Source: Deinococcales bacterium (GTDB lineage: Bacteria; Deinococcota; Deinococci; Deinococcales; JAAFIG01). Taken from it: a stretch of DNA of 22,880 nt. The stretch lies in the NCBI GenBank assembly GCA_031414595.1, contig JANNVX010000111.1, positions 1-22,880 on the forward strand, written 5' to 3'. The notes under the pieces were generated by a model, which was not told where the DNA came from, made no database searches, and saw only the letters and a list, made by a program, of their open reading frames with translations. The stretch's first letter is position 1; each line of letters opens with the position of its first letter. Of the stretch, positions 172-22,578 are shown piece after piece. The position numbers and the translations under genes were made by a program.

Positions 172-2016
172 TTATTCAACCGTCACAGATTTGGCTAGGT
201 TACGCGGTTTATCCACGTCTTTACCCAGCGCAGTAGCCGTAAAATACGCCAATAACTGCATCGCAACCGCATTGACCACTGGCGAGACTATCTCATGGCT
301 TTTTGGCACGATAATCACATCGTCGGCGTGGCGGCTGGCTTGGGTATCACCGTCGGAAACCACAGCAATCACCTTGCCACCTCGAGCGCGAACTTCTTGA
401 ATGTTAGAAATAGTTTTCTCGAGCAGTACGCTGTCGGTGGCAATCACGACTACGGGCAGATTTTCATCAATCAGCGCAATTGGTCCGTGCTTCATTTCGC
501 CAGCAGCATAGGCTTCGGCATGAATATAGCTAATTTCTTTAAGTTTCAGTGCGCCTTCATAAGCAGTTGGGCTGTTGACACCGCGACCCAAAAACAAATA
601 GTCTCGGGCATCTTTGTATTTTTCGGCGATGCGTTTGATGTTGGCGACTCGAGTCTCATTCAATGCTTCTTCGACCAAACGCGGCAATTCCCTTGCGCTG
701 CGGATTAACTCTGCGCCTTTGACAGCATCAAGTGTACCCCTTGCGCGTCCAAGCCACAGCGCCAGCATCAACATGGCACTGACCATGCTGGTATACGCCT
801 TAGTGCTTGCCACACCAATTTCTGGACCAGCATGAATATAGAGCGTGTCGTCTACTTCTCGAGTCATGCTGCTGCCTTTGGCGTTAATAATACCCAATGT
901 TTTCGCGCCACTTTTTTTGGCTTCGCGCAGTGCCTCTAAAGTATCTATTGTTTCGCCACTTTGCGAAATCACAATCGCTAAGGTATTTTCTGAAACCAAA
1001 GGTTGACGGTAGCGGTACTCGGAAGCAACATCTATTTCGACTGGAACTCGAGCCAACTGCTCGATTAAATACTCGCCGACCAGACCAGCGTAAAAGGCAG
1101 TACCACAAGCAATGATGCTGATGCGCTTAAAACTGGCTGGGTCGAGGTTAAGTTCTAATTCAACTTCGCCAGTCTCGTCATGTAAACGCCCAAGTAAGGT
1201 GTTTGACAAGGCTTGGGGTTGCTCATAGATTTCTTTAAGCATATAGGTGTCAAAACCACTTTTTTCGGCGGCTTCGGCATCCCAGTCAATGTGGCTGACT
1301 TCTCGAGAGACGGTGTTGCCTTGAAGATCCATGATGCGGTAACTCGAGTCGGTTAAAACCACCATATCACCATCGTGTAAAAACACCACTTCTCGAGTGT
1401 AATTAAGCAGTGCTGGCACGTCGGAAGCCAAAAACATTTCGTCATGCCCCACACCCATAACCAGCGGCGAAACGGTTCTGGCTGCCACAATTTCGCGGTG
1501 GTCACGGTGCGTAACCACAATTCCATAAGCGCCGCGTACCTCGGATAATGCGTTTCGCACTGCCTGCTCGAGATTACCCGAACCGGACGCGCCACGGGTG
1601 GTCTCATATTTTTCTTCGATTAAATGTACCAACACTTCCGAATCGGTTTCGGACTTAAAAACATGTCCCCTTGCTTGCAGTGCCTCTTTTAGGGGCAAAT
1701 AATTTTCGATAATGCCATTGTGGATAATTACGATACTGCCATCTTCAGAGGCGTGTGGGTGGGCATTGACATCGTTGGGCTTGCCGTGGGTTGCCCAGCG
1801 TGTATGTCCAATACCAAGTGTGCCAAGCAGATTTTCTTGGGCTAATTCGGCTTGTAGAATAGCGAGTTTACCCGCGTTTTTACGCACTTCAAGATTTGTG
1901 CCATTATGAACTGCCACGCCCGAAGAGTCATAGCCACGATACTCAAGTTTAGAAAGACCAGAGATTAAGACTTCGGTGGCGTTGCGTGTTCCAATATAAC
2001 CAACTATTCCGCACAT
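172..2016 (-). CDS. glmS: Glutamine--fructose-6-phosphate aminotransferase (isomerizing)
   Basis: N-terminal MCGIVG (Ntn catalytic Cys), GHTRWATHG, HNGIIENY, SQSGET, C-terminal DKPRNLAKSVTVE; 614 aa; SD GTGAGG upstream. Confidence 0.99.
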   Translation of the reverse strand: MCGIVGYIGTRNATEVLISGLSKLEYRGYDSSGVAVHNGTNLEVRKNAGKLAILQAELAQENLLGTLGIGHTRWATHGKPNDVNAHPHASEDGSIVIIHNGIIENYLPLKEALQARGHVFKSETDSEVLVHLIEEKYETTRGASGSGNLEQAVRNALSEVRGAYGIVVTHRDHREIVAARTVSPLVMGVGHDEMFLASDVPALLNYTREVVFLHDGDMVVLTDSSYRIMDLQGNTVSREVSHIDWDAEAAEKSGFDTYMLKEIYEQPQALSNTLLGRLHDETGEVELELNLDPASFKRISIIACGTAFYAGLVGEYLIEQLARVPVEIDVASEYRYRQPLVSENTLAIVISQSGETIDTLEALREAKKSGAKTLGIINAKGSSMTREVDDTLYIHAGPEIGVASTKAYTSMVSAMLMLALWLGRARGTLDAVKGAELIRSARELPRLVEEALNETRVANIKRIAEKYKDARDYLFLGRGVNSPTAYEGALKLKEISYIHAEAYAAGEMKHGPIALIDENLPVVVIATDSVLLEKTISNIQEVRARGGKVIAVVSDGDTQASRHADDVIIVPKSHEIVSPVVNAVAMQLLAYFTATALGKDVDKPRNLAKSVTVE

Positions 2017-2065
2017 GAAAAAACCTCACAAATACAGCAACTCGAGTTATTCTCGAGTCTGGAAA

Positions 2066-2250
2066 TTCCCTGCTCCTTAGTTTGTGTCCGTTTCGCAACG
2101 TGTTTTCTAAGGGCTTTTTGATTCGGGCGGCTGGGGGTACAGCCGAAGGACATCCGCAGATTATGGTGTTACCACCGCTTTTCGATAATCCTTACCTCGT
2201 GTTCTCGAGCATGGTTTTCTTTGACCGATGTAACCCGAGACCTTGCGCTT
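2066..2250 (-). ncRNA. glmS ribozyme (GlcN6P-activated self-cleaving riboswitch)
   Basis: Minus strand reads A|GCGCAAGG, P1 (UCUCGGG/CUCGAGA), ACGAGG, UAAGGA, UUAUCGA...UCUGCGGAUG, UCCUU, P3 (CGGCUG/CAGCCG), P4 (CCUUAG/CUAAGG) and P4.1 (CGUU-GCGA-AACG), directly upstream of glmS. Predicted cleavage is between 2249 and 2248. Confidence 0.92.
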
Positions 2251-2449
2251 CCCTATTTTGAATACGACTTAGCAGCCTCCAAATACCGTAACATAGGATG
2301 ATACACCATCATGAGTAACTTGTGTAAAGCACTCAACAATTTGACTGGCAAAATTCCAGATTTTAGGAGCAATAGCTCGGAATGTTTTTAATTTTTCACC
2401 TCAGTAAACTCTAGCATTTGACACTTCCATGACGTAAACTTGGTACTCA

Positions 2450-3610
2450 ATGCAATTGGCTGCGGTTACAGATTCGATTCTCGATGCCTCACGGGTCGCC
2501 AGTGCTTTTGCACGGGCTGGGCATGAGACTACGCTGCTCCTGCATGAACACAGCCAAAAAACCGTCGGTGGCAGTGCTTTGGTTTTAGATGCAGATTTGC
2601 GTGGGCTTTCTAAGCTCGACTCGAGAACCCGCTTACAGAACTTGGGGCGAAATTTGCGAAACAGCCAAATTGCTTTTTTTCGTTTTGACTCGAGTCTGCG
2701 CCGCCCGTGGGACGACCTCTTCGCCACGCTCGAAGCCAGTGGGCGCAACAAAGTGATTTTAGCCGCTTTTAGCCCGCTCGAAGGCTTTGAAGTGCGACAT
2801 GGCACAGTCTTTTGGCATGGTTCGCCGCTTCACCGTAGCAGTTTAGCCAGAGACCGGCTGAACCCAGTCTATGATGCCAACATCCCAGATTTACTCGAGC
2901 GTGAAGGGCTTGGTGCGGTGGCATTGGTGCGAGATATAAACCCGCAGACCATCCAAGCCGCCCTCGAGAAAGCCCGTTTTGTGATTGTGGACGGAGGCAA
3001 CCGAGGCGATATTGAAAACTTAGTCGCCAGTGTTCAAGACCCCCAAAGTGTTTTGTGGGCGGGCAGTGCTAATCTTGCTCGGGCAATTGGCGCGGCTTTT
3101 GCAGTCGGTGAAGCACCAGACTTTGAGCGTACCGATTTGGTCGCCCCGACCCTGCTTGCCCTTGGTGGCAACTTGCAAAAAATAGAACAACTCAAAATCC
3201 TAAAAGCCGCAGGATTAAGCACCGTTGCCCTCGAGCCGAACGAACAAGGCATTGCCAGAGCCGTGACCCAAGCCAGAACTGCCTTAGAAAAAACAGGCTG
3301 TGCCTTGTATCTCGAATTACCACCAAGTGCTTTTGGAATTCCAGCCGCCCAAGTGCAACGCAATTCGCTCGAGGCGTTGTCGGAAGTGATTGCCCAGTTA
3401 TCGCAAAACAACTGCTTTGAAAACCTGTTGCTCTGCGGCACACCACTTGCCACCAGCAGTTTAAGGCGCTTAAATGCCCAAGGGATTCACATTGACCCAT
3501 TTACCGACAGCACCCATTTAATCGCTCCAAATCCACACCGAATTCAGGTCAGAGCCTCGAGTGACACGCCACAAACCCTGCTTGGGGCGTACCAATGTTT
3601 GGCTGGTTAA
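2450..3610 (+). CDS. Four-carbon acid sugar kinase (DUF1537/YgbK)-like protein with degenerate motifs
   Basis: Layout matches the family: N-terminal AAVTDSILDA (cf. IADDLTGA), RFDSSLRR (cf. KIDSTLRG), VIVDG, WAGSANLARA (cf. GSAGLA). Confidence 0.7.
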   Translation: MQLAAVTDSILDASRVASAFARAGHETTLLLHEHSQKTVGGSALVLDADLRGLSKLDSRTRLQNLGRNLRNSQIAFFRFDSSLRRPWDDLFATLEASGRNKVILAAFSPLEGFEVRHGTVFWHGSPLHRSSLARDRLNPVYDANIPDLLEREGLGAVALVRDINPQTIQAALEKARFVIVDGGNRGDIENLVASVQDPQSVLWAGSANLARAIGAAFAVGEAPDFERTDLVAPTLLALGGNLQKIEQLKILKAAGLSTVALEPNEQGIARAVTQARTALEKTGCALYLELPPSAFGIPAAQVQRNSLEALSEVIAQLSQNNCFENLLLCGTPLATSSLRRLNAQGIHIDPFTDSTHLIAPNPHRIQVRASSDTPQTLLGAYQCLAG

Positions 3611-3637
3611 ACATACCCATGTTTGGCTGGTTAAACC
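3590..3637 (+). repeat. 24-bp tandem duplication across the stop codon
   Basis: TACCAATGTTTGGCTGGTTAAACA followed by TACCCATGTTTGGCTGGTTAAACC (2 mismatches). Confidence 0.9.
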
Positions 3638-3642
3638 AAGAA

Positions 3643-3651
3643 TGTTAGAAT
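3643..3651 (+). promoter_or_regulatory. Extended -10 of a probable leaderless promoter
   Basis: TG-t-TAGAAT lies 6 nt before the ATG at 3658, with no clear SD; this is typical Deinococcus leaderless geometry. Confidence 0.6.
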
Positions 3652-3657
3652 ATAGGC

Positions 3658-4080
3658 ATGGGTATTTCCTCGGTTCGTACAGATTTTTCGCCTCGCGGTA
3701 ATGATGTCCTAGATGTTCTCGAGGGCGAATATGCCCTGATTTCTTTATTGCCAAATACTGAAATCAGGCTACCTGCGACTGGCGCTCTGCGGGTTTTAAT
3801 CGAAGACCCTTTTGAAACCACCCTGATTCTCGAGGTTAGCGCATGGCAAAAAATCACTCATCTGTACCCAGAAGCCCGAGCCAATGGGCATTACCGAGCG
3901 ATACGACTTTCCCAAGATTTTCCACTCGAGACGGTCGGTGTGATGGCAAAACTGACCACTGCACTGGCACAAGCAGGGGTCAGTATTATGGCGTACAGTA
4001 CCTTCAAAACCGATGTGGTGTTGGTGCGAGAATGGGAATTATCTAAGGCACTTGGCGCACTCTGGGACTTGCGTTTCTAG
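3658..4080 (+). CDS. ACT-domain protein (ACT_7/CASTOR-like)
   Basis: C-terminal VGVMAKLTTALAQAGVSIMAYSTFKTDVVLV is the ACT_7 signature. Confidence 0.85.
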   Translation: MGISSVRTDFSPRGNDVLDVLEGEYALISLLPNTEIRLPATGALRVLIEDPFETTLILEVSAWQKITHLYPEARANGHYRAIRLSQDFPLETVGVMAKLTTALAQAGVSIMAYSTFKTDVVLVREWELSKALGALWDLRF

Positions 4081-4081
4081 C

Positions 4082-4951
4082 TTACTTGATACTGCCGTTT
4101 AAGCCACTCGGGAAGAAACCACCGCTTGTTGTGCCACCCAAGTAAACAATTTTTAAGACTTCGGCGGTGCTGCGGCTAAAGGCTATCGAATTAGCATCGG
4201 TCGGTAGGATATTGGCTTTTCCACCAACCACCAAACCTTGGTCTTTACCGCCACCAACACTGCCACGCAAATCCGAGATTTTTTGGACAATCGTTTCGAC
4301 GGTGACGTTGTATGGGGTCATGATGTCTTTTTGTTGGTACAAAAGGGTACGGATTTCGCCAGCATGGTATGCCTCAACCCCAAGAATTCCGGCGGCTGCC
4401 TCGAGAAAGTCTTTATTGGTGATTAAACGGGCTGCGCCTTTGTAAGCGGTCACACCGACATCTTCAAAAATAAATGCACCATGCAAAAAGAACAACTCGT
4501 TGGCATAGGGGTCAAAGGCTGGGCTTAAGGTTGCGGCAAAAGCAGCATTGGCGGCGGCAGCAAAGGCTGGACCAATGTCTATTTGTGGACGCGCCACAGC
4601 TTTAGAACCAAGTGCTGCCCGTAAAAACTTGACATGGGCTTCTTCGTCCAGAGCAATTTCTTCGGCGTATGCCTGAATCGCAGGAGTGGCAAAAGTGACT
4701 TTGCGTCCACCAATTGGCGCGGGACCACCGCCACTGTCGGCGGCACTGAGTGAGCGTCCAAAGGCAGCTTGTAAGTAAAATTCGGCTTCTAAATACTCGA
4801 GATTTAGCGCAAAGTTAAGAACATCCACATCAATATCTGGCATTTGTGCAACTACTGTTGGCACACAGGCGGCAAGGGTAGCACCCACGCCCATCATTCC
4901 GAGGCTTCCGAGGGCTTGACGACGACTGAGGTTACGTGTATTGGTTGACAT
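4082..4951 (-). CDS. Ferritin-like desiccation-related protein (PCC13-62/DR_B0118 type), predicted Tat lipoprotein
   Basis: SRRQAL twin-arginine motif, LAAC lipobox, DVLNFALNLEYLEAEFY, EEAH, FEDVGVTAYKGAA, VEAYHAG, C-terminal GGFFPSGLNG. Confidence 0.92.
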   Translation of the reverse strand: MSTNTRNLSRRQALGSLGMMGVGATLAACVPTVVAQMPDIDVDVLNFALNLEYLEAEFYLQAAFGRSLSAADSGGGPAPIGGRKVTFATPAIQAYAEEIALDEEAHVKFLRAALGSKAVARPQIDIGPAFAAAANAAFAATLSPAFDPYANELFFLHGAFIFEDVGVTAYKGAARLITNKDFLEAAAGILGVEAYHAGEIRTLLYQQKDIMTPYNVTVETIVQKISDLRGSVGGGKDQGLVVGGKANILPTDANSIAFSRSTAEVLKIVYLGGTTSGGFFPSGLNGSIK

Positions 4952-5013
4952 AAAATTCCTCCACCAAAGATTGTTGCAACAACCCTTAGTCTAAAAGCGC
5001 TTCAACTTGGATG

Positions 5014-5039
5014 TACGCAAAGCCATCAGCCTTTGGATG
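5014..5039 (-). promoter_or_regulatory. Putative ECF-sigma promoter of the ferritin-like gene
   Basis: Minus strand CATCC-N17-CGTA about 60 nt upstream of the start; resembles SigK/ECF26-type promoters as I recall them. Confidence 0.5.
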
Positions 5040-5126
5040 TGGCGGCGCGGTGTGTGTCTTTGGGTGTAGACTTGGGTTCTTCAAGAACCTCGGGTCTAAG
5101 CCTTCATTTAATGTAAGGGGTGGATT

Positions 5127-7157: not shown

Positions 7158-7163
7158 GTGCAT

Positions 7164-7207
7164 AGGCGAAGGTTTTACTTTTGCCCTTCGCCTTTCGCCC
7201 TTCGCCT
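7164..7207 (+). repeat. Heptamer tandem repeat (TTYGCCY x4) with an upstream complementary arm
   Basis: TTTGCCC TTCGCCT TTCGCCC TTCGCCT at 7180-7207; AGGCGAAGG at 7164-7172 can pair with CCTTCGCCT. Confidence 0.75.
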
Positions 7208-7298
7208 TCTTTTGTCCCTCTTCCGTTAAGACCTTCTTTGGTGTACACTCCCAAGGCTTGCCGTGCCGAATTACAGTAGCGTGGCTTTGGAGGATTTT

Positions 7299-7895: not shown

Positions 7896-7912
7896 ACGGT
7901 TAAGCGTTTCTC

Positions 7913-7941
7913 AAGCGGGACGCAAATCGCGTCCCGCTTTT
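7913..7941 (+). terminator. Rho-independent terminator after rplY
   Basis: AAGCGGGACGC-aaatc-GCGTCCCGCTT followed by a T run. Confidence 0.85.
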
Positions 7942-7979
7942 GCTTGTTGAGGCTTTTGGTCTTAAAATAGGACGAATCC

Positions 7980-9209: not shown

Positions 9210-9280
9210 GGGAAAGCAGTATCACGCACGTTTTGAAATAACCATTTAGTTTTGCAGTCAAAACATGAAAAATGCGTCAG

Positions 9281-9308
9281 GTAGGGGCGAACCCCCGTGT
9301 TCGCCCTG
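9281..9308 (+). repeat. GTAG-family REP element
   Basis: GTAG-GGGCGAAC-CCCCGT-GTTCGCCC-TG; near-identical copy at 22849-22876. Confidence 0.85.
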
Positions 9309-9668
9309 TTTTTTCATTTACTCACTCCCGCCGCTTTTCATATTTTGCTGTCGCTGGCAGAAAATGAACAACATGGGTATGGGATTATTAAAACTGTTCT
9401 CGAGCGCTCAGGCGGCGAAGTCAACCTTGGGGCTGGCACACTGTATGGCAACCTTAAACGCTTTATTGACCTTGCTTGGATTGAGGAACTTGAGGCTCGA
9501 CCAGCCAAAGATTTGGACGATGAACGGCGCAGGTATTACCGTCTGACTAAACACGGGTTACGGATTGCTGAACTCGAGGCAGAGCGCTTAGAAAGCCTTG
9601 TGCGTTACGCTCGAGCCGCTAGATTATTACCAAATCTAAGAATCAGCACCAAACGGGAGGTTGCATGA
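9297..9668 (+). CDS. PadR-family transcriptional regulator (start uncertain)
   Basis: LTPAAFHILLSL, HGYGI, GAGTLYGNLKR, RRRYYRLT. The only in-frame start ahead of the domain is a GTG inside the REP. Confidence 0.9.
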   Translation: MFALFFHLLTPAAFHILLSLAENEQHGYGIIKTVLERSGGEVNLGAGTLYGNLKRFIDLAWIEELEARPAKDLDDERRRYYRLTKHGLRIAELEAERLESLVRYARAARLLPNLRISTKREVA

Positions 9669-10477
9669 AACTCGAGACTTGGATGTACAAACAAACCCTA
9701 GAATTGTACCCAAGGGTTTACCGTGAACAATTTGGTGAACCAATGCTCGAGACTTACACCGATGCACTAAAATCCGCCAAACTCGAGGGGAAAACATTTG
9801 GGTTTCATTGGAATACTTTTTGGGACATCATCAAAAGCATTTCTCGAGCCACAATGGATGTCAAGAATGCTAACCTACTGGCTCGAATTACGGCTGTACT
9901 GGGTTTGATGTTGCTCATTTTACTGCTTGTTGGTTTAATGCAAGTTCCACTTTTTCCGATTGTTGGGAAATATGTGTCACCAGTGGTGGCTTTGCTGTTT
10001 GTTATTGGTTTAACTTTTTTTGCCAATTGTTTTTATGAAATGCGACACAAATGGATTCTGCCACTCATGATGATATTATCAGTGCTAGTTTTGTTCATTC
10101 AATTTTGTTTTGAACTGTTTTACCCTTCCCAAATTGGTGTTTTGCATAATCCACAATTGAATCCATATGCAAATACCACATTTCTGGTATTTGCATATAT
10201 TTCCAAAATTCTTGGCGCATTGGTGCTGGTTTTGATTGTTGGCTCAATTGCCCTTGAAGCAGTTGAGAAGCGTAGAGTTTTACCAATAAATCGTTTCACA
10301 TTGAGTTATATCGCGTTTACTTTTGGGATAAATGCGGTTGCTCCACAAGGTCCAGATTTTATACTGAAGATTTTGAGTGCTGTTTACTTTATTGTTTGGT
10401 TTGCGGTGATGATTTTTATTTGCTTACGCTTATGGCAACAGCCTCGCGCTGCACCTCGAATGATTAAAACTTCGTAA
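9665..10477 (+). CDS. Multi-pass membrane protein with the N-terminal motif typical of PadR-associated genes
   Basis: ATGA overlap with pad[23 protein letters not shown] motif followed by about 6 hydrophobic segments. Confidence 0.8.
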
Positions 10478-10521
10478 ATCCCATAACTCGAGCCAAATTT
10501 CACGGTATCATCCCAAGTCTT

Positions 10522-10653
10522 GTGGAAGGTCTTTTTATTGCTTCACAACTGGGGGAAATCTGTGCGCGGCTTCCAGCCCGTAACCTCGGTTGGGTATTTC
10601 CGAATGAAACCACTGCCGCGCTACTGCTCGAGGATTCAAACCATAAAGCGTAA
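10522..10653 (+). pseudogene. 5' fragment of an NFACT/Rqc2 (RqcH, FbpA-like) gene
   Basis: GTG-started 43-codon [46 protein letters not shown] matches my recollection of the Deinococcus NFACT N-terminus (MEGL..A..L..L...[19 protein letters not shown]). A -10-like TATCAT lies at 10506-10511. Below the ORF-track size cut-off. Confidence 0.7.
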
Positions 10654-10674
10654 AATCTGCTGCTCGAGGCAGGT

Positions 10675-11268
10675 TTACCTGAGTTTTGACAACGCCTTAC
10701 GAATTAAGCCCTCGGCGGTGTCATCCACTCCACTCTCGAGCAAATTTGCCACCACCGTTCGCACTTGGGCATCGCGGTAGCCCAAGGAAATCAGGGCTTC
10801 AACCGCATCCCTAAACGCCTCATTTTCTGATGGGGCTGGTCGCGGTGTGCCTTTGCCTACAGCTAAATGGGCTGGGAGTTTAGAACTTAGCTCGAGAATT
10901 AGGCGCTCGGCGGTTTTTTTACCTACGCCGCTTACACTGGCAAGTAATTTGGCATCTTCTTTCATGATTGCACTGGCAAGCACATTTGGGTTATAGGTCG
11001 AAAGTGCAGCCAAAGCAATTCTGGGACCAACGCCCGAAACCGTCATCAGGAGCTTAAAAATTTCCAGTGCATCGGCTTCATGGAAACCGTATAAACTCCA
11101 ACCATCCTCGCGGACGATTAGACTGGTCTCGAGGCGCACGGGTTGTCCGACTTTACAGCGTTCTAAACTGGGTCTGGGACAGGAAATCTCGAGTCCAAAA
11201 CCGCCAATGGCGATAATCGCACTGGAGTCTTTGACAGCAACCACCAAACCTTCTACAAAAGCAATCAT
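10675..11268 (-). CDS. ruvA: Holliday junction branch migration protein RuvA
   Basis: MIAFVEG, VREDGWSLYGF, VSGVGPRIALA, GVGKKTAERLILEL, ALISLGY, IRKAL. Confidence 0.98.
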   Translation of the reverse strand: MIAFVEGLVVAVKDSSAIIAIGGFGLEISCPRPSLERCKVGQPVRLETSLIVREDGWSLYGFHEADALEIFKLLMTVSGVGPRIALAALSTYNPNVLASAIMKEDAKLLASVSGVGKKTAERLILELSSKLPAHLAVGKGTPRPAPSENEAFRDAVEALISLGYRDAQVRTVVANLLESGVDDTAEGLIRKALSKLR

Positions 11269-11401
11269 TGCCTTGTATTGTAAAAGAAATTGTACTCGAG
11301 AAACGAGTTTGCTTTTTTAGGTTCAGGTTTTTCGTGAGGGAAAGAATTTATTGGGTTTTTTGTAGGTTTTGACCAGTTTGGCAGTAGAATTTGCGGACGA
11401 C

Positions 11402-11471: not shown

Positions 11472-12782
11472 GTGACTCAACTGACCAGTACACAAATCCT
11501 GTCCTTAGCCCCCGATACCTCGAGTGCCAGCAGTGGTAAAGCGCTAAGCAACCCCAGCAAATGGAAAACCCTAGGCTCGAGCGATATGGCTATTTGGGGA
11601 GAATGCCAAGGCAGTGGCAAAGACCCCTACCGCACAGGGGTGGATTTATCCGATTACACCGCCAAATGCTCCTGTCCAAGCCGAAAATTTCCTTGTAAGC
11701 ATGGAATAGGTTTGATGCTGATTCACGCGAGTAAAACACTCGAGACAGCCACACCACCAGATTGGCTAAGCACATGGCTCGAGGGCAGACAAAAACGCGC
11801 CGAAGCCAAAACTGCCCCGCCCAAAGAACAAAGTTTAGAAGAAACCAAAAAGTCCGAAAAAGCCGCTATCAAGCGCTTGGAAGCTCGAGAAAAGAAAGTC
11901 GAACTTGGACTTGAAGAATTTGGCTTATGGTTGTCTGACCAAATCAAAAATGGAATTGCCAACGCCCCAAGCCAGCCTTACAGCTATTGGGAAACCGTGG
12001 CAGCACGGCTGATAGATGCCCAAGCCCCCGGACTCGCCCGAATGGTACGCGAATTGCCCACGGCTGCCTCGAGCGGCACAAATGCTTTACTCGAGGCACT
12101 GGCACGGCTGCATCTGATTGTCAGCGCTTACTCGAGACTCGAAACCTTATCGGCAAGTACCCAAGCCGATGTTCGCGCCGCCGTTGGCTTCACCCAAGAC
12201 AAAGCCGAATTGATGCAAAAAACTGTGCCTCGCAACAAATGGCAAAGTTTAGGGCAGATTATTGTCCAAGAAGATAATTTGCGGGTACGGCGAACTTACC
12301 TCGAGAACTTAGAAAACAAAGAATATGCCTTGCTGCTCGATTTTGCGGTGGGCAACCAACCGATGACTGGCGGTCTGCCGATAGGTGTGAATTTAGAAAC
12401 CGAACTGATTTACTACCCAAGTCACTTGCCCCTACGCGCCATTCTCAAAGACCCGCAAATTCTCGAGCCAGCCCAAACCCTGCGCGGTATCACCATCAAC
12501 CAAGCGCTTGAACAGTACACCAATGCCCTAAGTAAACTCCCGTGGCTCGAGCGATACCCAGTCACCCTAAGCAATGTTCAAGTGGTGACAGACGGTACGG
12601 TTTGGTACATTCAAGATGAGCATCACAGCCTAGCGATACAAACCCAAGACCACTGGCAGATGATGGCGTTAAGTGGCGGACATCCTGTACAAGTTTTTGG
12701 TGAGTATAACGGCACACACCTTGTTCCTTTAAGTATCGAAGTACAAAACACTATTTTTATGCTTGGAGGTAGCCATGAATGA
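11472..12782 (+). CDS. SWIM zinc-finger protein (DdrT/YehQ-like)
   Basis: WGECQGSGKDPY, CSCPSRKFPCKH (CxC...CxH), ARLIDAQAPGLA; SD AAGGA. Confidence 0.92.
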   Translation: MTQLTSTQILSLAPDTSSASSGKALSNPSKWKTLGSSDMAIWGECQGSGKDPYRTGVDLSDYTAKCSCPSRKFPCKHGIGLMLIHASKTLETATPPDWLSTWLEGRQKRAEAKTAPPKEQSLEETKKSEKAAIKRLEAREKKVELGLEEFGLWLSDQIKNGIANAPSQPYSYWETVAARLIDAQAPGLARMVRELPTAASSGTNALLEALARLHLIVSAYSRLETLSASTQADVRAAVGFTQDKAELMQKTVPRNKWQSLGQIIVQEDNLRVRRTYLENLENKEYALLLDFAVGNQPMTGGLPIGVNLETELIYYPSHLPLRAILKDPQILEPAQTLRGITINQALEQYTNALSKLPWLERYPVTLSNVQVVTDGTVWYIQDEHHSLAIQTQDHWQMMALSGGHPVQVFGEYNGTHLVPLSIEVQNTIFMLGGSHE

Positions 12783-15359: not shown

Positions 15360-15360
15360 A

Positions 15361-17592
15361 ATGAGCCTACATTTGTTTGGGATTCGGCATCATGGTGTTG
15401 GTGGGGCGCGTTCGTTAAAGCGGGCGCTGCATCTGCTCGAGCCAGATTGTGTTTTGGTCGAGGGTCCACCCGATGCCAACGACCTCCTGCCTTTACTAGC
15501 CGATGTTGGCATGACCCCACCTGTTGCGCTACTGCTCTATGCCAAAGACGACCCATCAAAAGCTGTCTATTACCCATTTGCTGCTTTCAGCCCCGAATTC
15601 CAAGCCATTTCCTATGCCTTAAAGCAAAAAATAACAGTTCGTTTCATGGATTTACCTCAAGCCCATCAGTTATCTGATGACCCTGACTGTAGAGGTGACG
15701 GAGCTTCAAGCGACGGGGGTTGCGCCCGTGCAGATGACGATGATGTATCCCAAGACCCCCTAGGCTGGTTAGCCAAAGCCGCAGGTTTTTCCGATGGTGA
15801 GCGCTACTGGGAATACCTTGTCGAACAACGCCAAAACGACCAAGACGTTTTCACTGCCATCCTCGAAGCCATGACCGCTCTACGTCTCGAGTCCAAAATT
15901 CTCGAGCCTCGAGAAGCTGGGCGCGAGGCATACATGCGTCAAACCATTCGCAAAGCCCAAAAAGACGGCTTCAAAAAAATAGCTGTAGTCTCTGGTGCGT
16001 GGCATTCACCCGTTTTGAACCCTGAAAATTTTGACCAAAAAAACGATGCCAAACTGCTCGAGGGTCTGCCCAAAACTGCCGTCTCGAGTACCTGGATTCC
16101 GTGGACATATGGGCGTTTGGCACGTTCAAGTGGGTATGGCGCAGGCATCACCAGTCCCGGTTGGTACGCGCACTTGTGGGAACTACAAGATTCGTCGTCG
16201 CGCAACGTCATCACCCATTGGCTGACCAAAGTAGCGCATCTGCTCCGAGCCGAAGATTTACCCGCCTCGAGTGCCAGCATCATCGAAGCGGTGCGTTTAG
16301 CCGAGGCACTAGCCGCCCTGCGTGGTTCACCGATGCCGGGCTTGGATGAAATGAACGAAGTTTCTCGGGCGCTTTTTGCCTGGGATTCTGACTTACCACT
16401 CGAGTTAATCAAAGAAAAACTAATTCTGGCAGAAACCCTTGGGGCTGTCCCCGCCTCCACGCCAACTGTACCGCTTGTGCGTGATTTGGAAGCTGAACAA
16501 AAACGTTTGCGCTTTAAGCCCGATGCGGTTGCTAAGAATGTGGAATTTGATTTACGAACCCCCAATGACTTAGAACGAAGTATGCTTTTGCACCGTTTGC
16601 GGCTGCTCGGTGTGCCGTGGGGCGAGGTGATTGGCAGTAGTGGCAAGGGGACATTCAAAGAGGCGTGGCGCGTTCAATGGCATCCAGAATTTGCGGTGCG
16701 GTTAATCGAAGCCGCGATGTTTGGTTCGAGTGTACTGGAAGCCGCCACCCAAAAAGTGCTGGAAATCTCGAGCCTGACCAGTCATTTACCAACCCTTACG
16801 GGCTTACTCGATGATGTGTTGCTATCGAACTTGCCCAATGCAGCGCAATTGGTTTTAACACGGCTTGAAGCGGCTGCGGCGCAAGATGCGGACATCAACC
16901 ACCTGATGATGGCAGTACCGCCTTTGGCTCGAGTACAACGTTACGGCAGTGTCCGTCAATTTGATTCGACCATGTTGCAAAGTGTGGTATCTGGTTTGGT
17001 AGTACGAATCTGTATTGGTTTACCGAACACTTGCGCCAGTTTATCGGATGAAGCGGCTGGAGACTTGTATCCAAGAATCCTTGAGCTACATGCCGCCATT
17101 GCCACCCTCGAGCAACCCGATTTACTAACAGAATGGCGCAAGGTGCTTGGGGTCTTAGCAGTTCAGCACGGACTACATGGCTTGATTGCGGGTCGTGCTG
17201 TGCGCTTGCTGCTCGAGGCGGGTGTCTATACCCCCGAGGACACCGCCAAACGTTTATCTTATGTGGCTGGTAGTGCCACCGACCCTAACGAAGTGGCGGC
17301 ATGGACAGATGGTTTCTTGCGTGGTTCAGGTTTGGTTTTGGTTCATGATGATGCTCTTTTTGGAGTGCTGGACTCGTGGGTACAACACCTCACGCCCGAG
17401 ACCTTTATTGCCATTCTGCCCCTGATGCGCCGTACCTTCTCGAGTTTTGAAGAGGGCGAGCGCCACGACATCGGACAGAAAGTCAAAGCCCCAAGGCAGC
17501 TAAGCACTTTTCACACTACCCAAGACATAGATGCCACCCGAGCCGAACAAGTCATCCCGTTAATCCATCAAATGCTAGGCATCCAACCGTAA
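15361..17592 (+). CDS. DUF5682/YehM-family protein (DdrW-like)
   Basis: LFGIRHHG, VLVEGP, YYPFAAFSPE, REAYMR, GAWH, WIPWTYGRL, SGYGAG. Start taken as ATG 15361, 1 nt after the AAA stop. Confidence 0.9.
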   Translation: MSLHLFGIRHHGVGGARSLKRALHLLEPDCVLVEGPPDANDLLPLLADVGMTPPVALLLYAKDDPSKAVYYPFAAFSPEFQAISYALKQKITVRFMDLPQAHQLSDDPDCRGDGASSDGGCARADDDDVSQDPLGWLAKAAGFSDGERYWEYLVEQRQNDQDVFTAILEAMTALRLESKILEPREAGREAYMRQTIRKAQKDGFKKIAVVSGAWHSPVLNPENFDQKNDAKLLEGLPKTAVSSTWIPWTYGRLARSSGYGAGITSPGWYAHLWELQDSSSRNVITHWLTKVAHLLRAEDLPASSASIIEAVRLAEALAALRGSPMPGLDEMNEVSRALFAWDSDLPLELIKEKLILAETLGAVPASTPTVPLVRDLEAEQKRLRFKPDAVAKNVEFDLRTPNDLERSMLLHRLRLLGVPWGEVIGSSGKGTFKEAWRVQWHPEFAVRLIEAAMFGSSVLEAATQKVLEISSLTSHLPTLTGLLDDVLLSNLPNAAQLVLTRLEAAAAQDADINHLMMAVPPLARVQRYGSVRQFDSTMLQSVVSGLVVRICIGLPNTCASLSDEAAGDLYPRILELHAAIATLEQPDLLTEWRKVLGVLAVQHGLHGLIAGRAVRLLLEAGVYTPEDTAKRLSYVAGSATDPNEVAAWTDGFLRGSGLVLVHDDALFGVLDSWVQHLTPETFIAILPLMRRTFSSFEEGERHDIGQKVKAPRQLSTFHTTQDIDATRAEQVIPLIHQMLGIQP

Positions 17593-17595
17593 ACC

Positions 17596-17623
17596 GTAGG
17601 GGCGAGGCATGCCTCGCCCCTAC
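17596..17623. repeat. GTAG-family REP, perfect 28-bp palindrome
   Basis: GTAGGGGCGAGGCA|TGCCTCGCCCCTAC immediately after the DUF5682 stop. Confidence 0.9.
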
Positions 17624-17650
17624 CACCATCCCACCAAAAAGGAGAACTAC

Positions 17651-18316
17651 ATGTCCCTAAAATCCCAAATCCCGCAATCATGGCAAACCGCCCTCGAGCC
17701 AGAATTCTCTAAACCCTACATTCCTAAACTCGAGGCGTTTCTCGAGGCAGAACGCAAAGCACATTCAGTCTTCCCCCCAGAATCAGAAGTCTTTTCTGCC
17801 CTCGAGTTCACTCCCTTTAATACTGTGCGGGTGCTGATTGTCGGACAAGACCCCTACCACGACGACAATCAGGCGCATGGCTTGGCGTTTTCGGTGCAGC
17901 GCGGTATGAAAATCCCACCGAGTTTGGTCAACATGTATAAAGAACTCGAGACAGATTTGGGCGTGCCACGAGCTAAACATGGTTTTCTCGAGTCGTGGGC
18001 GCGGCAAGGTGTGTTGATGCTCAATACCGTGCTGACGGTTCGGGCGCATGAAGCAGCTTCGCATAAGGGTAAAGGCTGGGAGAACCTGACCGACGCAATT
18101 ATTAAGGCTGTCAGTACCAAACCAGAACCTGTGGTCTTTGTCTTGTGGGGCGCTCATGCCCAGAAGAAACTCGAGTTGATTGATACCAAAAAGCACACAG
18201 TCATTCAAAGCGCCCATCCTTCGCCGCTCTCGGCGCGAAATGGTTTTTTTGGTTCTCAGCCATTTTCTAAAATCAATGCGGTTCTAAAAACCCCTATTGA
18301 CTGGAGTCTCGAGTGA
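17651..18316 (+). CDS. ung: Uracil-DNA glycosylase, family 1
   Basis: [39 protein letters not shown]. Start taken as ATG 17651 after SD AAGGAG. Confidence 0.98.
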
Positions 18317-19497
18317 GCCTTGAAACCGAACGCTTACGCCGTTGGCGTTTGCTGCTGGGTAGCGCGGCTGATAACTCTTGTGGCGCATGTGGTGCAGCCG
18401 ACCAGCGTATTGATCTTGCGCTCGAGTCTTTATACGGCGATGGCGACACAAAACCAATGTCGCCCGAAGATAAAGAAAAGAACCGCAACAATGTTGGTAA
18501 GGGCAAATCCCAACCCAAAGTCGCCCGTTGGCTTGGTGACATCCGTGAATTCTTCCCCAGCAGTGTGGTGCGGGTGATGCAGCGCGATGCTTTTGACCGC
18601 CTTGGCTTAAAACGAATGCTGCTCGAGCCAGAGATGATGGAAGCCGTCACCCCAGATGTACACATGGTCAGCACACTCTTGGCACTCAAAAACATCATGC
18701 CGCAAAAAGCCAAAGAAACAGCGCGGCTGATTGTACGAAAAGTGGTGGATGAACTCGAGAAAAAACTAGCTGAAAAAACCCGAGAGGCGGTGATTGGTAG
18801 CCTCAACCGTGCCATTCGTAATCGCCGCCCAAAGCACACCGAAATGGATTGGAACAGAACCATCAGGGCTAACCTTAAGCATTACCAACCCGATTATCAA
18901 AGCATTGTGCCAGAAATAAAAATTGGTTTTGGGCGTAAACGCTCGAGCCTACGCGATATTATTTTGTGTTTAGACCAAAGCGGTTCAATGGGTTCAAGTG
19001 TGGTTTATGCGGGTGTGTTTGGGGCAGTGCTTGCCAGCCTACCCGCCGTGCGAACACGGGTCGTAGTTTATGACACAAGTGTGGTGGATTTAACAGCAGA
19101 ACTCCACGACCCAGTAGATGTGCTTTTTGGCACACAACTTGGTGGTGGCAATGACACCCCAAAGGCACTTGATTACTGTGCGGGGTTGCTCGAGAAACCC
19201 GAGGACACCATTTTTATTTTAATTTCTGATTTGTACGAAGGCTCGGGCAGTGCTGCAATGCTCTCAAAACTCGAGGCGTTTATTGCGTCTGGCGTGACCG
19301 TGATTTCGCTGCTGGCGTTGTCTGACGATGGCAGACCCAGTTACGATGTCCAGAACGGAGCGGCGCTTGCCAAGATGGGCGTACCGGTCTTTGCCTGTAC
19401 TCCAGACCTTTTTCCAGACATGATGGCGGCGGCTATTTCGAGGCGTGATATTTTGCAATGGGCAGCCACCGAAGGAATTGTGACCACAAGAGCTTAA
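18313..19497 (+). CDS. VWA (CoxE-like) domain protein, YehP type (DdrX-like)
   Basis: [30 protein letters not shown]...T...D (ISDLYEG), ACTPD; GTG start overlaps the ung stop (GTGA). Confidence 0.92.
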
Positions 19498-20021
19498 TCT
19501 TGCCACTCGCTTAAACGCCGCAGGTCAGACCAGCCGTAGGTCACTTCACCAACACTGGAAGCTCCAACAGTCACTGGATGTAAACCTAAATCCTCTGCCC
19601 CCATGGCAATGTAGACCCGAGGGGTTGGATTACCACTGCGTAAGCGCACCAACATCGAATTAAGTCCGAGTGCGACTAAACCTTTTGCCACCGAAAGGAG
19701 CAATTGTTTACCCACACCTTGTCCTTGGTAACGTGGCATCACATATAAGGAGTACATTTCGGCTTCGATGGTTGAATGTCCGCCCCATTCAGGACCACCA
19801 GCCGCAAAACCAACCACTTCGCCGTCTTCTTCGGCAACGTAGGCAACCTCGTCGCCCCATTCTGCGCCTTCAAGAAAATGCTGCCAGCGTTGGTCGCCTC
19901 TTGGTTGTAAGGCATCAAAGGCAAAATCCGGTACAAGACTCGAGAACAAGGCTCTCCAGCATTCAAAATGCACTTGGGCGATGGCAGGAATGTCGTTTTT
20001 AGTGGCAGGTCGTATTTTCAT
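19494..20021 (-). CDS. GNAT-family N-acetyltransferase
   Basis: MKIRPATKNDIPAIAQVH, YVAEEDGEVVGF, LYVMPRYQGQGVGKQLL (acetyl-CoA motif). Start taken at ATG 20021. Confidence 0.92.
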   Translation of the reverse strand: MKIRPATKNDIPAIAQVHFECWRALFSSLVPDFAFDALQPRGDQRWQHFLEGAEWGDEVAYVAEEDGEVVGFAAGGPEWGGHSTIEAEMYSLYVMPRYQGQGVGKQLLLSVAKGLVALGLNSMLVRLRSGNPTPRVYIAMGAEDLGLHPVTVGASSVGEVTYGWSDLRRLSEWQD

Positions 20022-20088
20022 CGCTGGTTCTAGTCTAACCGATTTTATCTGGGCTTGCACAAGGAAATCAGAAAGGTATGCAGAATTA

Positions 20089-20122
20089 GGGTCGGATTAC
20101 TGGATAACTCGGGTCGGATTAC
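20089..20122. repeat. 12-bp direct repeat in the divergent intergenic region
   Basis: GGGTCGGATTAC at 20089-20100 and 20111-20122 (22-bp period). Confidence 0.8.
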
Positions 20123-20183
20123 GGCACAATGTCCTCTTGTGGCAAGGTAAGATAAGCCACATGAAACCGCGCAAGGTGACAAC

Positions 20184-20978
20184 TTGAAACTGGCAATTGC
20201 AGATTTGCACGGACGAGCCGACCTGCTCGAGGGTTTACTCGAGCGTGTGCCAGCCGACACCACTTTTGTTTTCTTGGGCGATGCGATAGACCGAGGGCAT
20301 CGTAACCGCGACACGATTCGTTTGCTGACCAAACTGGCGGATGAAGGACGCATGACTTTACTGCGTGGTAATCATGAAGCAATTGTTCTCGAGGTAGACG
20401 AATGCTTTGAGCGTTTTAAGCGCGAACCGACCGAGTTGCGGCGCGGGGACGCGCTGCTTTCAATGCAAAATTGGATTCAAAACGGTGGCGATACCGTGAT
20501 TATCGAATATGGCGGTTGGGACTCGGGTGGACAAGCCGATGCTTTTGGCGATTGGGGCTTACCACCAGAACTGATGACCTATGCCAGCCGCACCGAATAC
20601 ACCTACCGTCATGCAGGTGGCGAAAAAGGCGATATTTTGTGTGTCCATGCCGCCCCAAGCCAAGTCAAAGGCTACCGCAGCCCCGAAGACAGTATGGTTT
20701 GGGCGCGTCCAGAAGATGGTCCTTTTGCGTTGCCAGAAGGTGTTCTGCTCTCGGTGCATGGTCATACACCGGTTCATGCACCCACTCGGATTGGACAAAA
20801 TATTTTTATGGACTTAGGGGCAAAATGGACTGGACACCTTTGCACCCTCGACTTAGATACCCTAAAATTCACCACCTACAAAGGACTGGGTGAAGATACT
20901 TTAGAGAATCTACCTGTCTTTGAACCTGTGGCTGGAATTGAACCTGTGGTACTCGAGTTTGAGACAGTAGAGCTTTAA
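20184..20978 (+). CDS. Calcineurin-like metallophosphoesterase (PrpA/PrpB Ser/Thr phosphatase-like)
   Basis: ADLHG, GDAIDRG, RGNHE, CVHA, HGHTP, DLGA; TTG start after AAGGTGA. Confidence 0.92.
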   Translation: MKLAIADLHGRADLLEGLLERVPADTTFVFLGDAIDRGHRNRDTIRLLTKLADEGRMTLLRGNHEAIVLEVDECFERFKREPTELRRGDALLSMQNWIQNGGDTVIIEYGGWDSGGQADAFGDWGLPPELMTYASRTEYTYRHAGGEKGDILCVHAAPSQVKGYRSPEDSMVWARPEDGPFALPEGVLLSVHGHTPVHAPTRIGQNIFMDLGAKWTGHLCTLDLDTLKFTTYKGLGEDTLENLPVFEPVAGIEPVVLEFETVEL

Positions 20979-22261
20979 TGGGTTTGCACCAGTATTTCAA
21001 GTTCCTTCCATGCCGCTCGAGCGCTGGGTAAATCATCACGGTGACGCACTAAAAACTCTTGAACTCGAGCCATGCTGAGGCTGTCTTCAGAAAGGCGTTC
21101 AGCCAGTGCGGTGGCATCTGGAATACCCGGATAGAAGCGCTCGAGCATCTTGGCAATTTGTTGCCGTGTGGCATGACCCACAAACAAATGGACATCGCAA
21201 CGCCCCGGACGCACCAAGGCAGGGTCGAGTTTCTCGAGATGATTGGTGGTCATAAAGACCATTCGACCTTGTTGCGCTGTTACGCCATCTAAGGCGTTTA
21301 ATAAGCCATTAAAAGAGAGTTTGGTTTCAGCATCTTTTTTACGACCGACAAAAATCGCATCTATATCCTCGAGCAGAATTAAACTGCCTTCGGGTGCATC
21401 GGTCAGTAAATTGGTCAGGCTTTCATCGGTCAAAATTCCACTGGCTAGATTTAGCACACAAACACTTTTATGCAGCACACCTGCCAATGCCGTAATCAAA
21501 CTCGATTTGCCGTTGCCCGGAGGACCGTAGAGCAAGTAGCCACGCCGCCAAGGAATGCCCATGTCGGTGTACCACTGCTCAGACTCGAGGAAACGCTTAG
21601 TATCAGCACAAACCCGTTCAAATAATCCACCAGCATAAACCAAACTTTTGGGGTCTCGAGGCGGCACACGCTGCATCACCCGCCAATCATCCCAACGCGG
21701 CGCAAGAATTTCGACTCTGGGTTCTTCGGGTTTATGGACAGTTTTATAAGCCGCACCGACCAAGCGCTCTAAAGAATCACGGTTGGTGACCAAAGTACGC
21801 ACCGTTAAAGTCTCATGGAAACCAATCAGCAGACTGTTGTTTTGTTGGCGTTCCCGAGAAGCACTAAACCAAAATGTCCGATTTTCAAATTGTACTTTGA
21901 ATGTCCCGTCCACGGGTGCAAAGACCCCACGCGGCGCGTTGTCACGGGTATCCACAGCAAAACCTGCTTCGCCACTTCGTTGTGTCACCAGCGCCAAGTC
22001 ACGCATTCTCGAGCGCACGGGTTGGGTGGTTAGCCATGCTCTAAACCATTCAAAAGCATCGTCTCGAGAGTCCACTTGAACAGTCACGATAATGCGTTCC
22101 CAAATATAATCCCAGATTTGCTTGGGTAAATGCCGCAAATAGGCGATTGCCCCACCTGCAATCGCAAGGGTTAAACCACCAGTCACGACTTGGTTGGATT
22201 GCAAAGTCTTTTGCAACTCGAGCCAAACTTGGTTTATATCTGGATGTAAAAAATCAATCAT
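20975..22261 (-). CDS. BCS1-like membrane-anchored AAA+ ATPase (BCS1_N plus AAA)
   Basis: One N-terminal TM segment, DDAFEWFRAWL, GIPWRRGYLLYGPPGNGKSS, LLEDIDA, GLLNALDGV, MTTNHLEKLDPALVRPGRCD. Start taken as ATG 22261 after SD AAGGA. Confidence 0.9.
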   Translation of the reverse strand: MIDFLHPDINQVWLELQKTLQSNQVVTGGLTLAIAGGAIAYLRHLPKQIWDYIWERIIVTVQVDSRDDAFEWFRAWLTTQPVRSRMRDLALVTQRSGEAGFAVDTRDNAPRGVFAPVDGTFKVQFENRTFWFSASRERQQNNSLLIGFHETLTVRTLVTNRDSLERLVGAAYKTVHKPEEPRVEILAPRWDDWRVMQRVPPRDPKSLVYAGGLFERVCADTKRFLESEQWYTDMGIPWRRGYLLYGPPGNGKSSLITALAGVLHKSVCVLNLASGILTDESLTNLLTDAPEGSLILLEDIDAIFVGRKKDAETKLSFNGLLNALDGVTAQQGRMVFMTTNHLEKLDPALVRPGRCDVHLFVGHATRQQIAKMLERFYPGIPDATALAERLSEDSLSMARVQEFLVRHRDDLPSARAAWKELEILVQTH

Positions 22262-22375
22262 AAAGTCCTTAACTGTCAAACGCCAGACAGTAGCACAGCC
22301 CAAGACTGGCTGTGTAACAGACAATACGCAACGCAGAGGACTCAGTGCATCGGGGTTTTGGCGTAAGCCATTACA

Positions 22376-22409
22376 GCAAGACCTATGCGCCATCTGCAAG
22401 ACCTATGCG
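22376..22409. repeat. 14-bp direct repeat upstream of the BCS1-like gene
   Basis: GCAAGACCTATGCG at 22376-22389 and 22396-22409 (20-bp period). Confidence 0.85.
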
Positions 22410-22578
22410 TTTTTAATGGATCAGTCAGTCAGAGCCTCCGAAAGAATGCTATTTCATCGTTGCTAAAAATTAAAATCTTTTTGGAAGCGCTCAGGATTGC
22501 AGAGTTAAGAATTTTTCGAGTCAAAGCGCGGATTTTGTGTGCAGTCCTGTGCTGAACGCCAAAACTCGAGACTAACTA

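Follow-up and report, generated by a model that had tools for sequence, protein, structure and literature searches.

The six-base palindrome CTCGAG is a genuine highly iterated palindrome (HIP) in the bacterial lineage represented here by a 22,880-nucleotide stretch of Deinococcales DNA (hereafter, the window), and its hyper-abundance is a trait of that lineage rather than of the window. The window, contig C111 of an assembly denoted G000 (4,488,778 bases in 120 contigs, 47.2% guanine plus cytosine (GC), 94% complete), contains exactly 129 CTCGAG sites, one per 177 bp, the first at position 381 and the last at 22565-22570, spread over 19 open reading frames (ORFs) on both strands and the spacers between them; G000 as a whole contains 23,235 sites, or 5.18 per kb. 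A directional force bears on CTCGAG as a DNA word, one site at a time and in all contexts, and holds it in equilibrium turnover at ~4-7 copies per kb. The resulting pressure bends the choice of synonymous codons and even that of amino acids, leaving an excess of Leu-Glu pairs in the encoded proteins.

Abundance beyond composition and coding

CTCGAG is the commonest hexamer of G000 by threefold, and the next six hexamers in rank are all one-base extensions of its halves. Relative to base composition, its observed-to-expected ratio (O/E) is 23.9. The 129 sites of the window agree with the hand count of an earlier note, which had put the excess there at more than 20-fold. A maximal-order Markov model returns an O/E of only 1.16, but this ratio is uninformative because 90% of all CTCGA and 69% of all TCGA sit within CTCGAG, the enriched 5-mers being themselves parts of the word; for TCGA, about 5.6% would be expected there. 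Within the window, 129 of the 193 TCGA tetramers carry the C..G flanks. Around the sites in G000, base frequencies resemble those of the genome at large, and the most frequent 10-mer has 517 copies, so the sites do not belong to a dispersed repeat.

Neither does the coding content of the genome account for the excess. With ORFs called crudely (3,234, with a minimum length of 150 amino acids), the density of CTCGAG is 5.14 per kb in ORFs versus 5.36 per kb in the rest of G000. Coding sites occupy all three codon phases (11,403, 3,705 and 4,016 sites in phases 0, 1 and 2), and a per-gene synonymous shuffle that retains both the proteins and the codon usage of each gene yielded 1,854 ± 40 sites compared with the 19,124 observed, corresponding to an excess of 9.2-fold in phase 0, 10.2-fold in phase 1 and 16.1-fold in phase 2. 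Of 18,999 Leu-Glu pairs, as many as 60% use the spelling CTCGAG, where context-free codon use predicts about 1.6%, with CTC making up 7.9% of Leu codons that are not followed by Glu and GAG 20% of Glu codons that are not preceded by Leu. Relative to other ways of writing Leu-Glu, CTCGAG has odds ~90 times as high as would be expected without context, far above ordinary codon bias. The same picture emerges at the scale of the window, where 100 dinucleotide-preserving shuffles gave a mean of 3.1 sites (standard deviation 2.2, maximum 10), none reaching 129, and 200 synonymous-codon shuffles of the 19 ORFs, picked from a mechanical ORF list, gave 14.9 ± 3.3 sites (maximum 23) against 122 observed in ORFs. 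The equal density in coding and non-coding DNA and the tenfold excess over the codon null bear out the proposal of the earlier note that the pressure is on DNA rather than on protein.

An origin of the excess in composition, coding or artefact is thus excluded for practical purposes: the Markov ratio just above unity, and the fact that CTC-GAG codon preference alone brings high-GC genomes to 1-3 copies per kb, lend next to no probability to a side effect of amino-acid content, codon usage or TCGA abundance, to a dispersed repeat, or to an assembly or binning error, when set against the excess that persists with amino acids and codons preserved, the concentration of TCGA in CTCGAG, the equal density outside ORFs in a genome of just 47% GC, the near-random flanks and the recurrence of the trait in 19 separately assembled genomes, one of them a single contig. 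Of the two outcomes by which the earlier note would have been refuted, disappearance of the enrichment under a null for amino acids, codon usage and TCGA or its restriction to this window or assembly, neither came about.

Distribution in the order

The closest named GlmS records come from metagenome-assembled genomes (MAGs) labelled Deinococcus sp. (84% and 78% identity), which carry almost no CTCGAG and bear out the assignment to Deinococcota supposed in the earlier note. In two low-GC MAGs labelled Trueperaceae, the word ranks first among hexamers, with a density of 2.2-2.4 per kb. We compared 41 related genomes, 19 of which, in five genera, constitute the family of the window; all but one of these are fragmented MAGs of 57-94% completeness, the remaining one, G013, being a single contig. 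CTCGAG abounds in all 19 family genomes (12,028-35,442 sites each, 4.3-6.8 per kb), with GAGCTC present in 0-568 copies. In samples of the other four genera, with GC contents of 52-63%, CTCGAG is still the top hexamer; because the word ranks first over the range of 47-63% GC, the trait is independent of base composition.

Across the order, a census of 363 genomes from 59 genera (including the unpublished G327, on which no claim rests) shows a patchy distribution. The largest genus of the neighbouring family, taken to be Deinococcus-like on account of its size, GC content and GlmS identity, is depleted of the word in 111 of 111 genomes, with 26-1,372 copies per genome; a 40-kb sample from one such genome contained 4 sites versus about 14 expected by hand calculation at 67% GC. 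Within genus g23 of the same neighbouring family, the density is 8.6 per kb in G156, 7.0 in G157 and 0.30 in G158. Another genome, G042, has 3.6 sites per kb, and several genera of two further families have 2-3.5 per kb and few GAGCTC. The contrast between G156 or G157 and G158 was considered for timing the switch and dropped, the divergence being old (54-61% protein identity and 65-73% DNA identity). Separately, GlmS of genus g2 (G008 and G012) is 64-65% identical to that of G000, compared with 80-86% for the other family genera and 81% for the sister genus, and may represent a replaced gene copy.

Conservation and turnover of sites

CTCGAG is held in place 3-4 times better than control hexamers. 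Five congeners, whose DNA orthologous to the window is 93-77.5% identical, kept 88.5, 85, 73.5, 81 and 69% of the sites, against 70, 59, 41, 27.5 and 23% of control hexamers. Codon alignments of 12-31 orthologue pairs per genus extended the comparison across genera, with the sites of G000 kept in place at 36 of 126 positions in G013, 95 of 209 in G011, 11 of 55 in G010, 40 of 95 in genus g2 and 11 of 57 in G009, that is, 19-46% in-place conservation versus 5-11% for control hexamers. Consequently, more than half of the sites differ between genera while the density is unchanged.

Turnover could be polarised in four overlapping trios, which yielded 41 gains and 45 losses. Losses per lineage amounted to 8.8, 10.6 and 13.5% of the sites, compared with 18.4, 28.6 and 42% change for control hexamers, such that loss of CTCGAG proceeds 2-3 times more slowly than change in ordinary hexamers, and gains roughly balance losses. 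Among motif-discordant hexamers, 8 of 23, 11 of 33 and 11 of 38 differed at three or more bases (7.9, 9.8 and 10.4% for differing control hexamers), which could be taken for rewriting of sites in one event, that is, concerted conversion. The flanks of discordant sites show no consistent reduction in divergence relative to the flanks of control hexamers with multiple differences, and we therefore read the pattern as more probably reflecting suppression of single-step losses.

Effect on protein composition

Compared with the Deinococcus-like outgroup, Leu-Glu is present at only 11 of 52 phase-0 sites, below the 34% background of dipeptide identity, indicating that many of the Leu-Glu pairs are derived. 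Over the proteins of G000, Leu-Glu has an O/E of 2.22, compared with 0.98 for Glu-Leu. The Leu-Glu excess follows the abundance of CTCGAG, rising from 0.96 in a Deinococcus-like sample through 1.53 in G019 and 1.83 in G042 to 2.04-2.44 in the four other genera of the family. The outlier is motif-poor G158 (0.30 sites per kb), which shows the excess (1.60) without the word and in which CTCGAA is the second commonest spelling of Leu-Glu; this excess may be the protein-level ghost of a motif that was secondarily lost.

Sites and features of the window

The 122 site counts within the ORFs of the window divide into 81 in phase 0 (CTC-GAG), 20 in phase 1 and 21 in phase 2, and into 96 on plus-strand and 26 on minus-strand genes, which comprise 15,573 and 5,301 gene bases, respectively, so that the occurrence in all three codon phases and on both strands described in the earlier note is confirmed. 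Fully outside the ORFs lie eight sites (2041, 2052, 2204, 10487, 10627, 10663, 11295 and 22565), including all five intergenic ones that had been listed previously. Those at 2041-2046 and 2052-2057, 11 bp apart, are found between the glmS ribozyme and the start of glmS; three (10487..10668) lie between the ORFs that end at 10477 and 10675; another (11295..11300) separates the divergent ORFs 10675-11268 (minus strand) and 11472-12782 (plus strand); and the last (22565..22570) is downstream of the final ORF, 20975-22399 on the minus strand. The exact site list also contains a CTCGAG-N-CTCGAG pair, 7 bp apart, at 15901..15913.

The glmS ribozyme (2062..2260, minus strand) matches Rfam RF00234 with 44.9 bits, the gathering score being 37, and in the structural alignment its CUCGAG (2204-2209) forms the 3' strand of the first helix of the model, in accord with the previous placement of a site inside P1. 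The adjoining glmS gene (172..2016, minus strand) contains nine sites, two in phase 0, six in phase 1 and one in phase 2; the six fall in the x-Arg-x phase, which fits the 'TRE' reading given before. In a GlmS codon alignment from 19 sources, the phase-0 site at nucleotide 444 of the coding sequence is CTCGAG in all motif-rich genomes sampled and TTGGAG or CTCGAA in motif-poor relatives; likewise, at conserved Leu-Glu positions of GlmS, motif-rich genomes invariably use CTCGAG, and motif-poor ones use CTCGAA, CTGGAA or TTGGAG.

Three short segments of the window (approximately 7164-7212, 9255-9327 and 17591-17625) recur on many contigs of congeners with 85-100% identity. They are devoid of CTCGAG and have the appearance of small dispersed repeats.

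Other palindromes, variant words and spacing

The 64 six-base palindromes of G000 have a median O/E of 0.09, versus 0.83 for all hexamers. CTCGAG is the sole large exception, the next palindrome being CAATTG with an O/E of 2.15. The avoidance is extreme for certain words: GGCC occurs 152 times in 4.5 Mb, GAGCTC six times, CGATCG three times, TGCGCA twice and GGGCCC never, and the O/E of GATC is 0.14. Palindromes are avoided in other motif-rich genomes as well, but not in G158 or G042; the median O/E is 0.17 in motif-rich G157 versus 0.80 in motif-poor G158.

The six words that differ from CTCGAG by one transition occur in 950-1,368 copies in G000, with O/E of 1.06-1.26 at every position, whereas the twelve that differ by one transversion have O/E of 0.16-0.70. 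Star-site avoidance, by which a nuclease would attack one-off sites, was rejected given that the transition variants are at or above expectation. Among the palindromic 8-mers around CTCGAG, CCTCGAGG is singled out as depleted, with 178 copies compared with 1,324-1,540 for the other three.

Gaps between nearest neighbours in G000 are near geometric (mean 191, coefficient of variation 0.99), and the 95% and 99% quantiles, 530 and 877, are close to the exponential values of 573 and 881. From this near-random distribution, each site appears to behave independently. The departures comprise a three-base periodicity, a deficit below about 20 bp and the absence of any gap of 6, the spacing that would form GAGCTC and is found zero times. 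Spacing 7 (CTCGAG-N-CTCGAG) occurs 101 times, compared with 17-49 times for each of the spacings 8-14.

DNA segments poor in CTCGAG

The longest stretches of G000 that lack CTCGAG are AT-rich (29-39% GC). One of 4,941 bp on C46 carries ORFs of 29-37% GC for a family-2 glycosyltransferase, a polysaccharide flippase-like protein and a hexapeptide transferase, and another of 3,255 bp on C30 encodes a clostripain-family peptidase at 30% GC. Intermediate densities were found in two further segments. The 17.2-kb contig C79 is, over its whole length, a one-strand cluster with half the usual density (2.55 per kb) that encodes a multicopper oxidase and DUF305, DsbD-like, thioredoxin-like and Lnt-like proteins, and is probably an accessory island for metal (copper) homeostasis. 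Two Tn7-like transposition genes at C26:2136-7764, one for TnsD/TniQ and one for a protein with a Mu-transposase C-terminal domain, contain 7 CTCGAG in 4.1 kb, about 1.7 per kb. The density of an entire contig is not below 2.3 per kb anywhere in G000. This gradient, from 5.2 per kb in the core through the islands to zero in AT-rich DNA, is as slow accumulation in resident DNA would give, and the absence of CTCGAG marks foreign DNA.

Methyltransferases and nucleases

Methylases were sought with five Pfam families, from which specificity is not readable and by which a shared enzyme could be missed. In G000, this search returned five C5 methylases, eight of the Eco57I type, eight N6/N4 enzymes and one of the D12 class, and further homology searches in Pfam, NCBIfam and PDB assigned class and architecture only. 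No methylase class is universal in the family: among the other 18 genomes, PF00145 was found in 17, PF07669 in 17, PF01555 in 16 and PF02086 in 17. G013 has one C5 and two D12 methylases, two type I M subunits, a 634-aa N6 enzyme and a 1,108-aa type IIG-like protein, none with an orthologue-level match in G000 (best identity 38%). Outside the family, motif-rich G157 gave ten hits in three methylase classes, and motif-rich G156, which is 58% complete, gave none. A cognate CTCGAG methylase is, accordingly, not supported by the family genomes, within the reach of incomplete MAGs and five Pfam families.

Two candidates were rejected. The C5 methylase L111 is restricted to genus g1 (7 of 8 genomes), with no counterpart in the other four genera; the enzyme resembles M.HhaI, and a 60% match in G157 is nothing special because homologues of 60-69% identity exist in unrelated phyla. 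L118, considered as a conserved orphan methylase, is confined to G000, G001 and G003; like L116, it combines Eco57I-type and TaqI_C domains, and the PDB relatives of both are distant (CamA, BseCI and type I M subunits).

The XhoI-family nuclease (PF04555) has no match in any of the 19 family genomes, whereas the same model, which matches none of 14 control genomes, identifies outgroup members of the panel, G021, G033 and a pseudogene in G031, each adjoining a methylase. The G031 gene (C1:1095688-1096226) is broken by two in-frame stops, one TGA and one TAG, and adjoins a 583-aa Eco57I-type methylase. Homologues of these partner methylases in G000 reach only 23-30% identity, save for one decayed fragment on C5. 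Vsr endonuclease (PF03852) has no match in G000, the one family genome searched for it, and its model matches 3 of the 14 control genomes. At C1:26904-28483 of G000, a 207-aa MutH/MvaI-BcnI-like nuclease is encoded after a D12-class adenine methylase; we rejected this hit as a CTCGAG system given the adjoining D12 gene and the GATC O/E of 0.14, and the two genes probably constitute a GATC-type restriction pair, consistent with the depletion of GATC. Taken together, with no XhoI-family nuclease in the family, no Vsr in G000, no methylase class in every family genome and no orthologous methylase common to G000 and G013, methylation-directed repair linked to a CTCGAG or TCGA methyltransferase, put forward as one possibility in the earlier note, found no support in these incomplete genomes.

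Possible mechanisms

We tentatively attribute the directional force to molecular drive through a palindrome-recognising protein, most plausibly during natural transformation. The putative protein would recognise the CTCGAG palindrome and bias which allele survives recombination or DNA repair, for example, by preferential uptake or integration of CTCGAG-bearing DNA in naturally transformable populations. The trait would not be the product of an inherited cognate methyltransferase and would have been switched on and off over evolutionary time, being on in 19 of 19 family genomes and two of the three genomes of genus g23. Drive is favoured because the sites appear to behave independently, no maximum spacing is enforced, no cognate methylase was found and the switching is like that of uptake-sequence dialects. 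Drive via transformation is also argued for HIP1 of cyanobacteria in passages of PMC13756078.

Several points weigh against drive. The analysis turned up no recognising protein, uptake receptor or repair enzyme, and the evolutionary pattern from which drive is deduced would look alike under biased conversion and under weak selection at individual sites. A 6-bp palindrome at 5 per kb would be unprecedented as an uptake sequence, by analogy with those known. The sites are not fully independent, as spacings below 20 bp are depleted (5% quantile of 24 versus 10), and a methylase shared by the family could have escaped a search with five Pfam families in MAGs that are 57-94% complete. Furthermore, CTCGAG is a classical type II site, recognised by dimeric restriction-modification (RM) proteins, and motif-rich genomes are rich in methylases, whereas motif-poor G158 gave no hits in three classes.

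The last two observations equally favour a methylation-linked system of the type described by Elhai, in which an orphan CTCGAG (or TCGA) methyltransferase would mark the word and methylation-dependent repair or another function would create and maintain it. We regard this as possible but doubtful. True XhoI-family nucleases with adjoining methylases do exist in the order, and motif-rich genomes, unlike G158, avoid almost all other palindromes. There is also precedent in parts of the literature, where CTCGAG and TCGA are given as methylated motifs common to one hot-spring genome group and its phages (bioRxiv 10.64898/2026.06.24.734251), CTCGAG as m5C-modified in a Halorubrum (PMC8112702), and HIP1 and alternate HIPs as each having a cognate methylase (Elhai 2015, PMC4390886). 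Nevertheless, no class of methylase occurs throughout the family, the XhoI-partner methylases and those of G013 are at most distantly related to proteins of G000, the M.HhaI-like enzyme of genus g1 is absent from four genera, and motif-rich G156 has no hits in three classes, although it is only 58% complete. In addition, Vsr has no match in G000, the one-off variants show no positional bias, unlike those of HIP1, and methylation alone does not explain accumulation.

Direct selection on each site as a chromosomal binding or structural element, for instance, as the target of a nucleoid protein or a determinant of chromosome architecture, appears unlikely. It would fit the in-place conservation well above background both within and between genera, a force strong enough to alter proteins, and the depletion of spacings below ~20 bp, compatible with a protein footprint; selection and an architectural role are argued for HIP1 in sections of Xu et al. 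2018 (PMC5861425). However, genera of equal density differ in the location of more than half of their sites, the tail of long gaps is exponential with no maximum spacing enforced, whole islands function without sites, the word appears to have been lost entirely in G158, and no candidate protein was identified.

Less credible still is a self-mark, whereby a host system would spare or prefer word-dense DNA and act against DNA without the word, such that resident DNA and successful mobile DNA alike are selected to carry it. The gradient from the core (5.2 per kb) through the accessory island (2.55) and the Tn7-like genes (about 1.7) to the foreign AT-rich island (0) is in the expected direction, the extreme palindrome avoidance indicates heavy restriction-system traffic, and CTCGAG is depleted in the sister genus. 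Yet the same gradient is expected from slow accumulation under any drive, and no such system was identified. At least 126 stretches of viral contigs carry CTCGAG triplets, and among the viral matches listed, most of the dense loci are high in GC and rich in GAGCTC, unlike the family signature, and none provides a usable host-linked phage.

A broader and rather improbable proposition is that CTCGAG is a 'self' word of the lineage, read by a dedicated module for uptake, recombination or defence, other than a conventional RM pair, that favours word-dense DNA. If so, the word would flip between being purged and being hyper-accumulated as the system comes and goes: purged in the Deinococcus-like genus (111 of 111 genomes) and accumulated in the family, in genus g19 and in two of three genomes of g23. 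The system would have disappeared from the lineage of G158, whose Leu-Glu excess persists at 1.60, compared with 0.96 in the sister genus, and HIPs would represent a general means of kin recognition that arose convergently in transformable bacteria, not a cyanobacterial oddity.

Comparison with known systems

To our knowledge, HIP1 is known only from cyanobacteria and has been unexplained for three decades. CTCGAG is HIP-like in behaviour, although some features particular to HIP1 are absent and others may be, and constitutes a second, denser case in an unrelated phylum. In the full-text literature, with most subscription journals outside its scope, no published report of CTCGAG hyper-abundance was found; the methylome papers naming Deinococcota do not report it in the parts covered, preprint supplements with possible motif tables lying outside the scope.

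The likeness to HIP1 (GCGATCGC), as described in portions of PMC4390886 and PMC5861425, extends to a short, hyper-abundant palindrome (15- to 300-fold for HIP1 versus 24-fold for CTCGAG), which occurs in all codon phases and in spacers beyond codon preference, is conserved more than control words and is lineage-wide. The HIP1-like behaviour proposed in the earlier note thus holds with respect to abundance, presence in all phases and spacers, and positional conservation. CTCGAG differs in being 6 bp rather than 8 bp long, in its phylum (Deinococcota) and in a density about 5-fold higher. No copy of GCGATCGC is present in G000, where CGATCG and GATC are likewise scarce. The one-off variants of CTCGAG are not biased to the outer positions, in contrast to deviants of HIP1, for which the first and last positions are described, and nearest-neighbour spacing, the scale covered here, is near random in the 120-contig G000, the periodicity described for HIP1 being at tens of kb. 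Finally, the search with five Pfam families in mostly incomplete genomes found no cognate methyltransferase for CTCGAG, and a sister lineage actively avoids the same word.

The DNA uptake sequences (DUS) of Neisseriaceae and the uptake signal sequences (USS) of Pasteurellaceae are 9-12 bp long and asymmetric, occur about once per kb and have a known receptor. CTCGAG shares with them a family-wide excess in genes and spacers, an imprint on proteins and absence from recently acquired DNA, all of which would be explicable by molecular drive without a benefit at each site, and its phylum is known for natural competence. Being 6 bp long, palindromic and present at ~5 per kb, it has only the genomic signature in common with DUS and USS. 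In Escherichia coli, very-short-patch repair by Dcm/Vsr raises the frequency of CCWGG and lowers that of CTWGG, an instance of a repair bias, tied to a methylated palindrome, that shifts word frequencies genome-wide. The effect of Dcm/Vsr is modest compared with 24-fold, Vsr has no match in G000, and the transition variants of CTCGAG are not depleted (1.06-1.26). The XhoI/PaeR7I RM systems recognise the identical word and occur in the same order, but the targets of such systems are normally avoided, as in the sister genus, whereas CTCGAG is here the commonest hexamer and the nuclease is found in 0 of 19 genomes.

The density of CTCGAG will affect cloning, restriction mapping and k-mer binning of these genomes, and it skews both the choice of codons and the make-up of proteins, in which Leu-Glu is doubled. 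As a second HIP, built on another word and apparently lacking the cognate methylase on which most models of HIP1 rest, it indicates that the phenomenon is convergent and provides an independent system in which these models can be tested. The order sets whole genera in which CTCGAG is purged beside hyper-accumulating lineages and one apparent loss, contrasts that make phylogenetic profiling for the responsible gene feasible.

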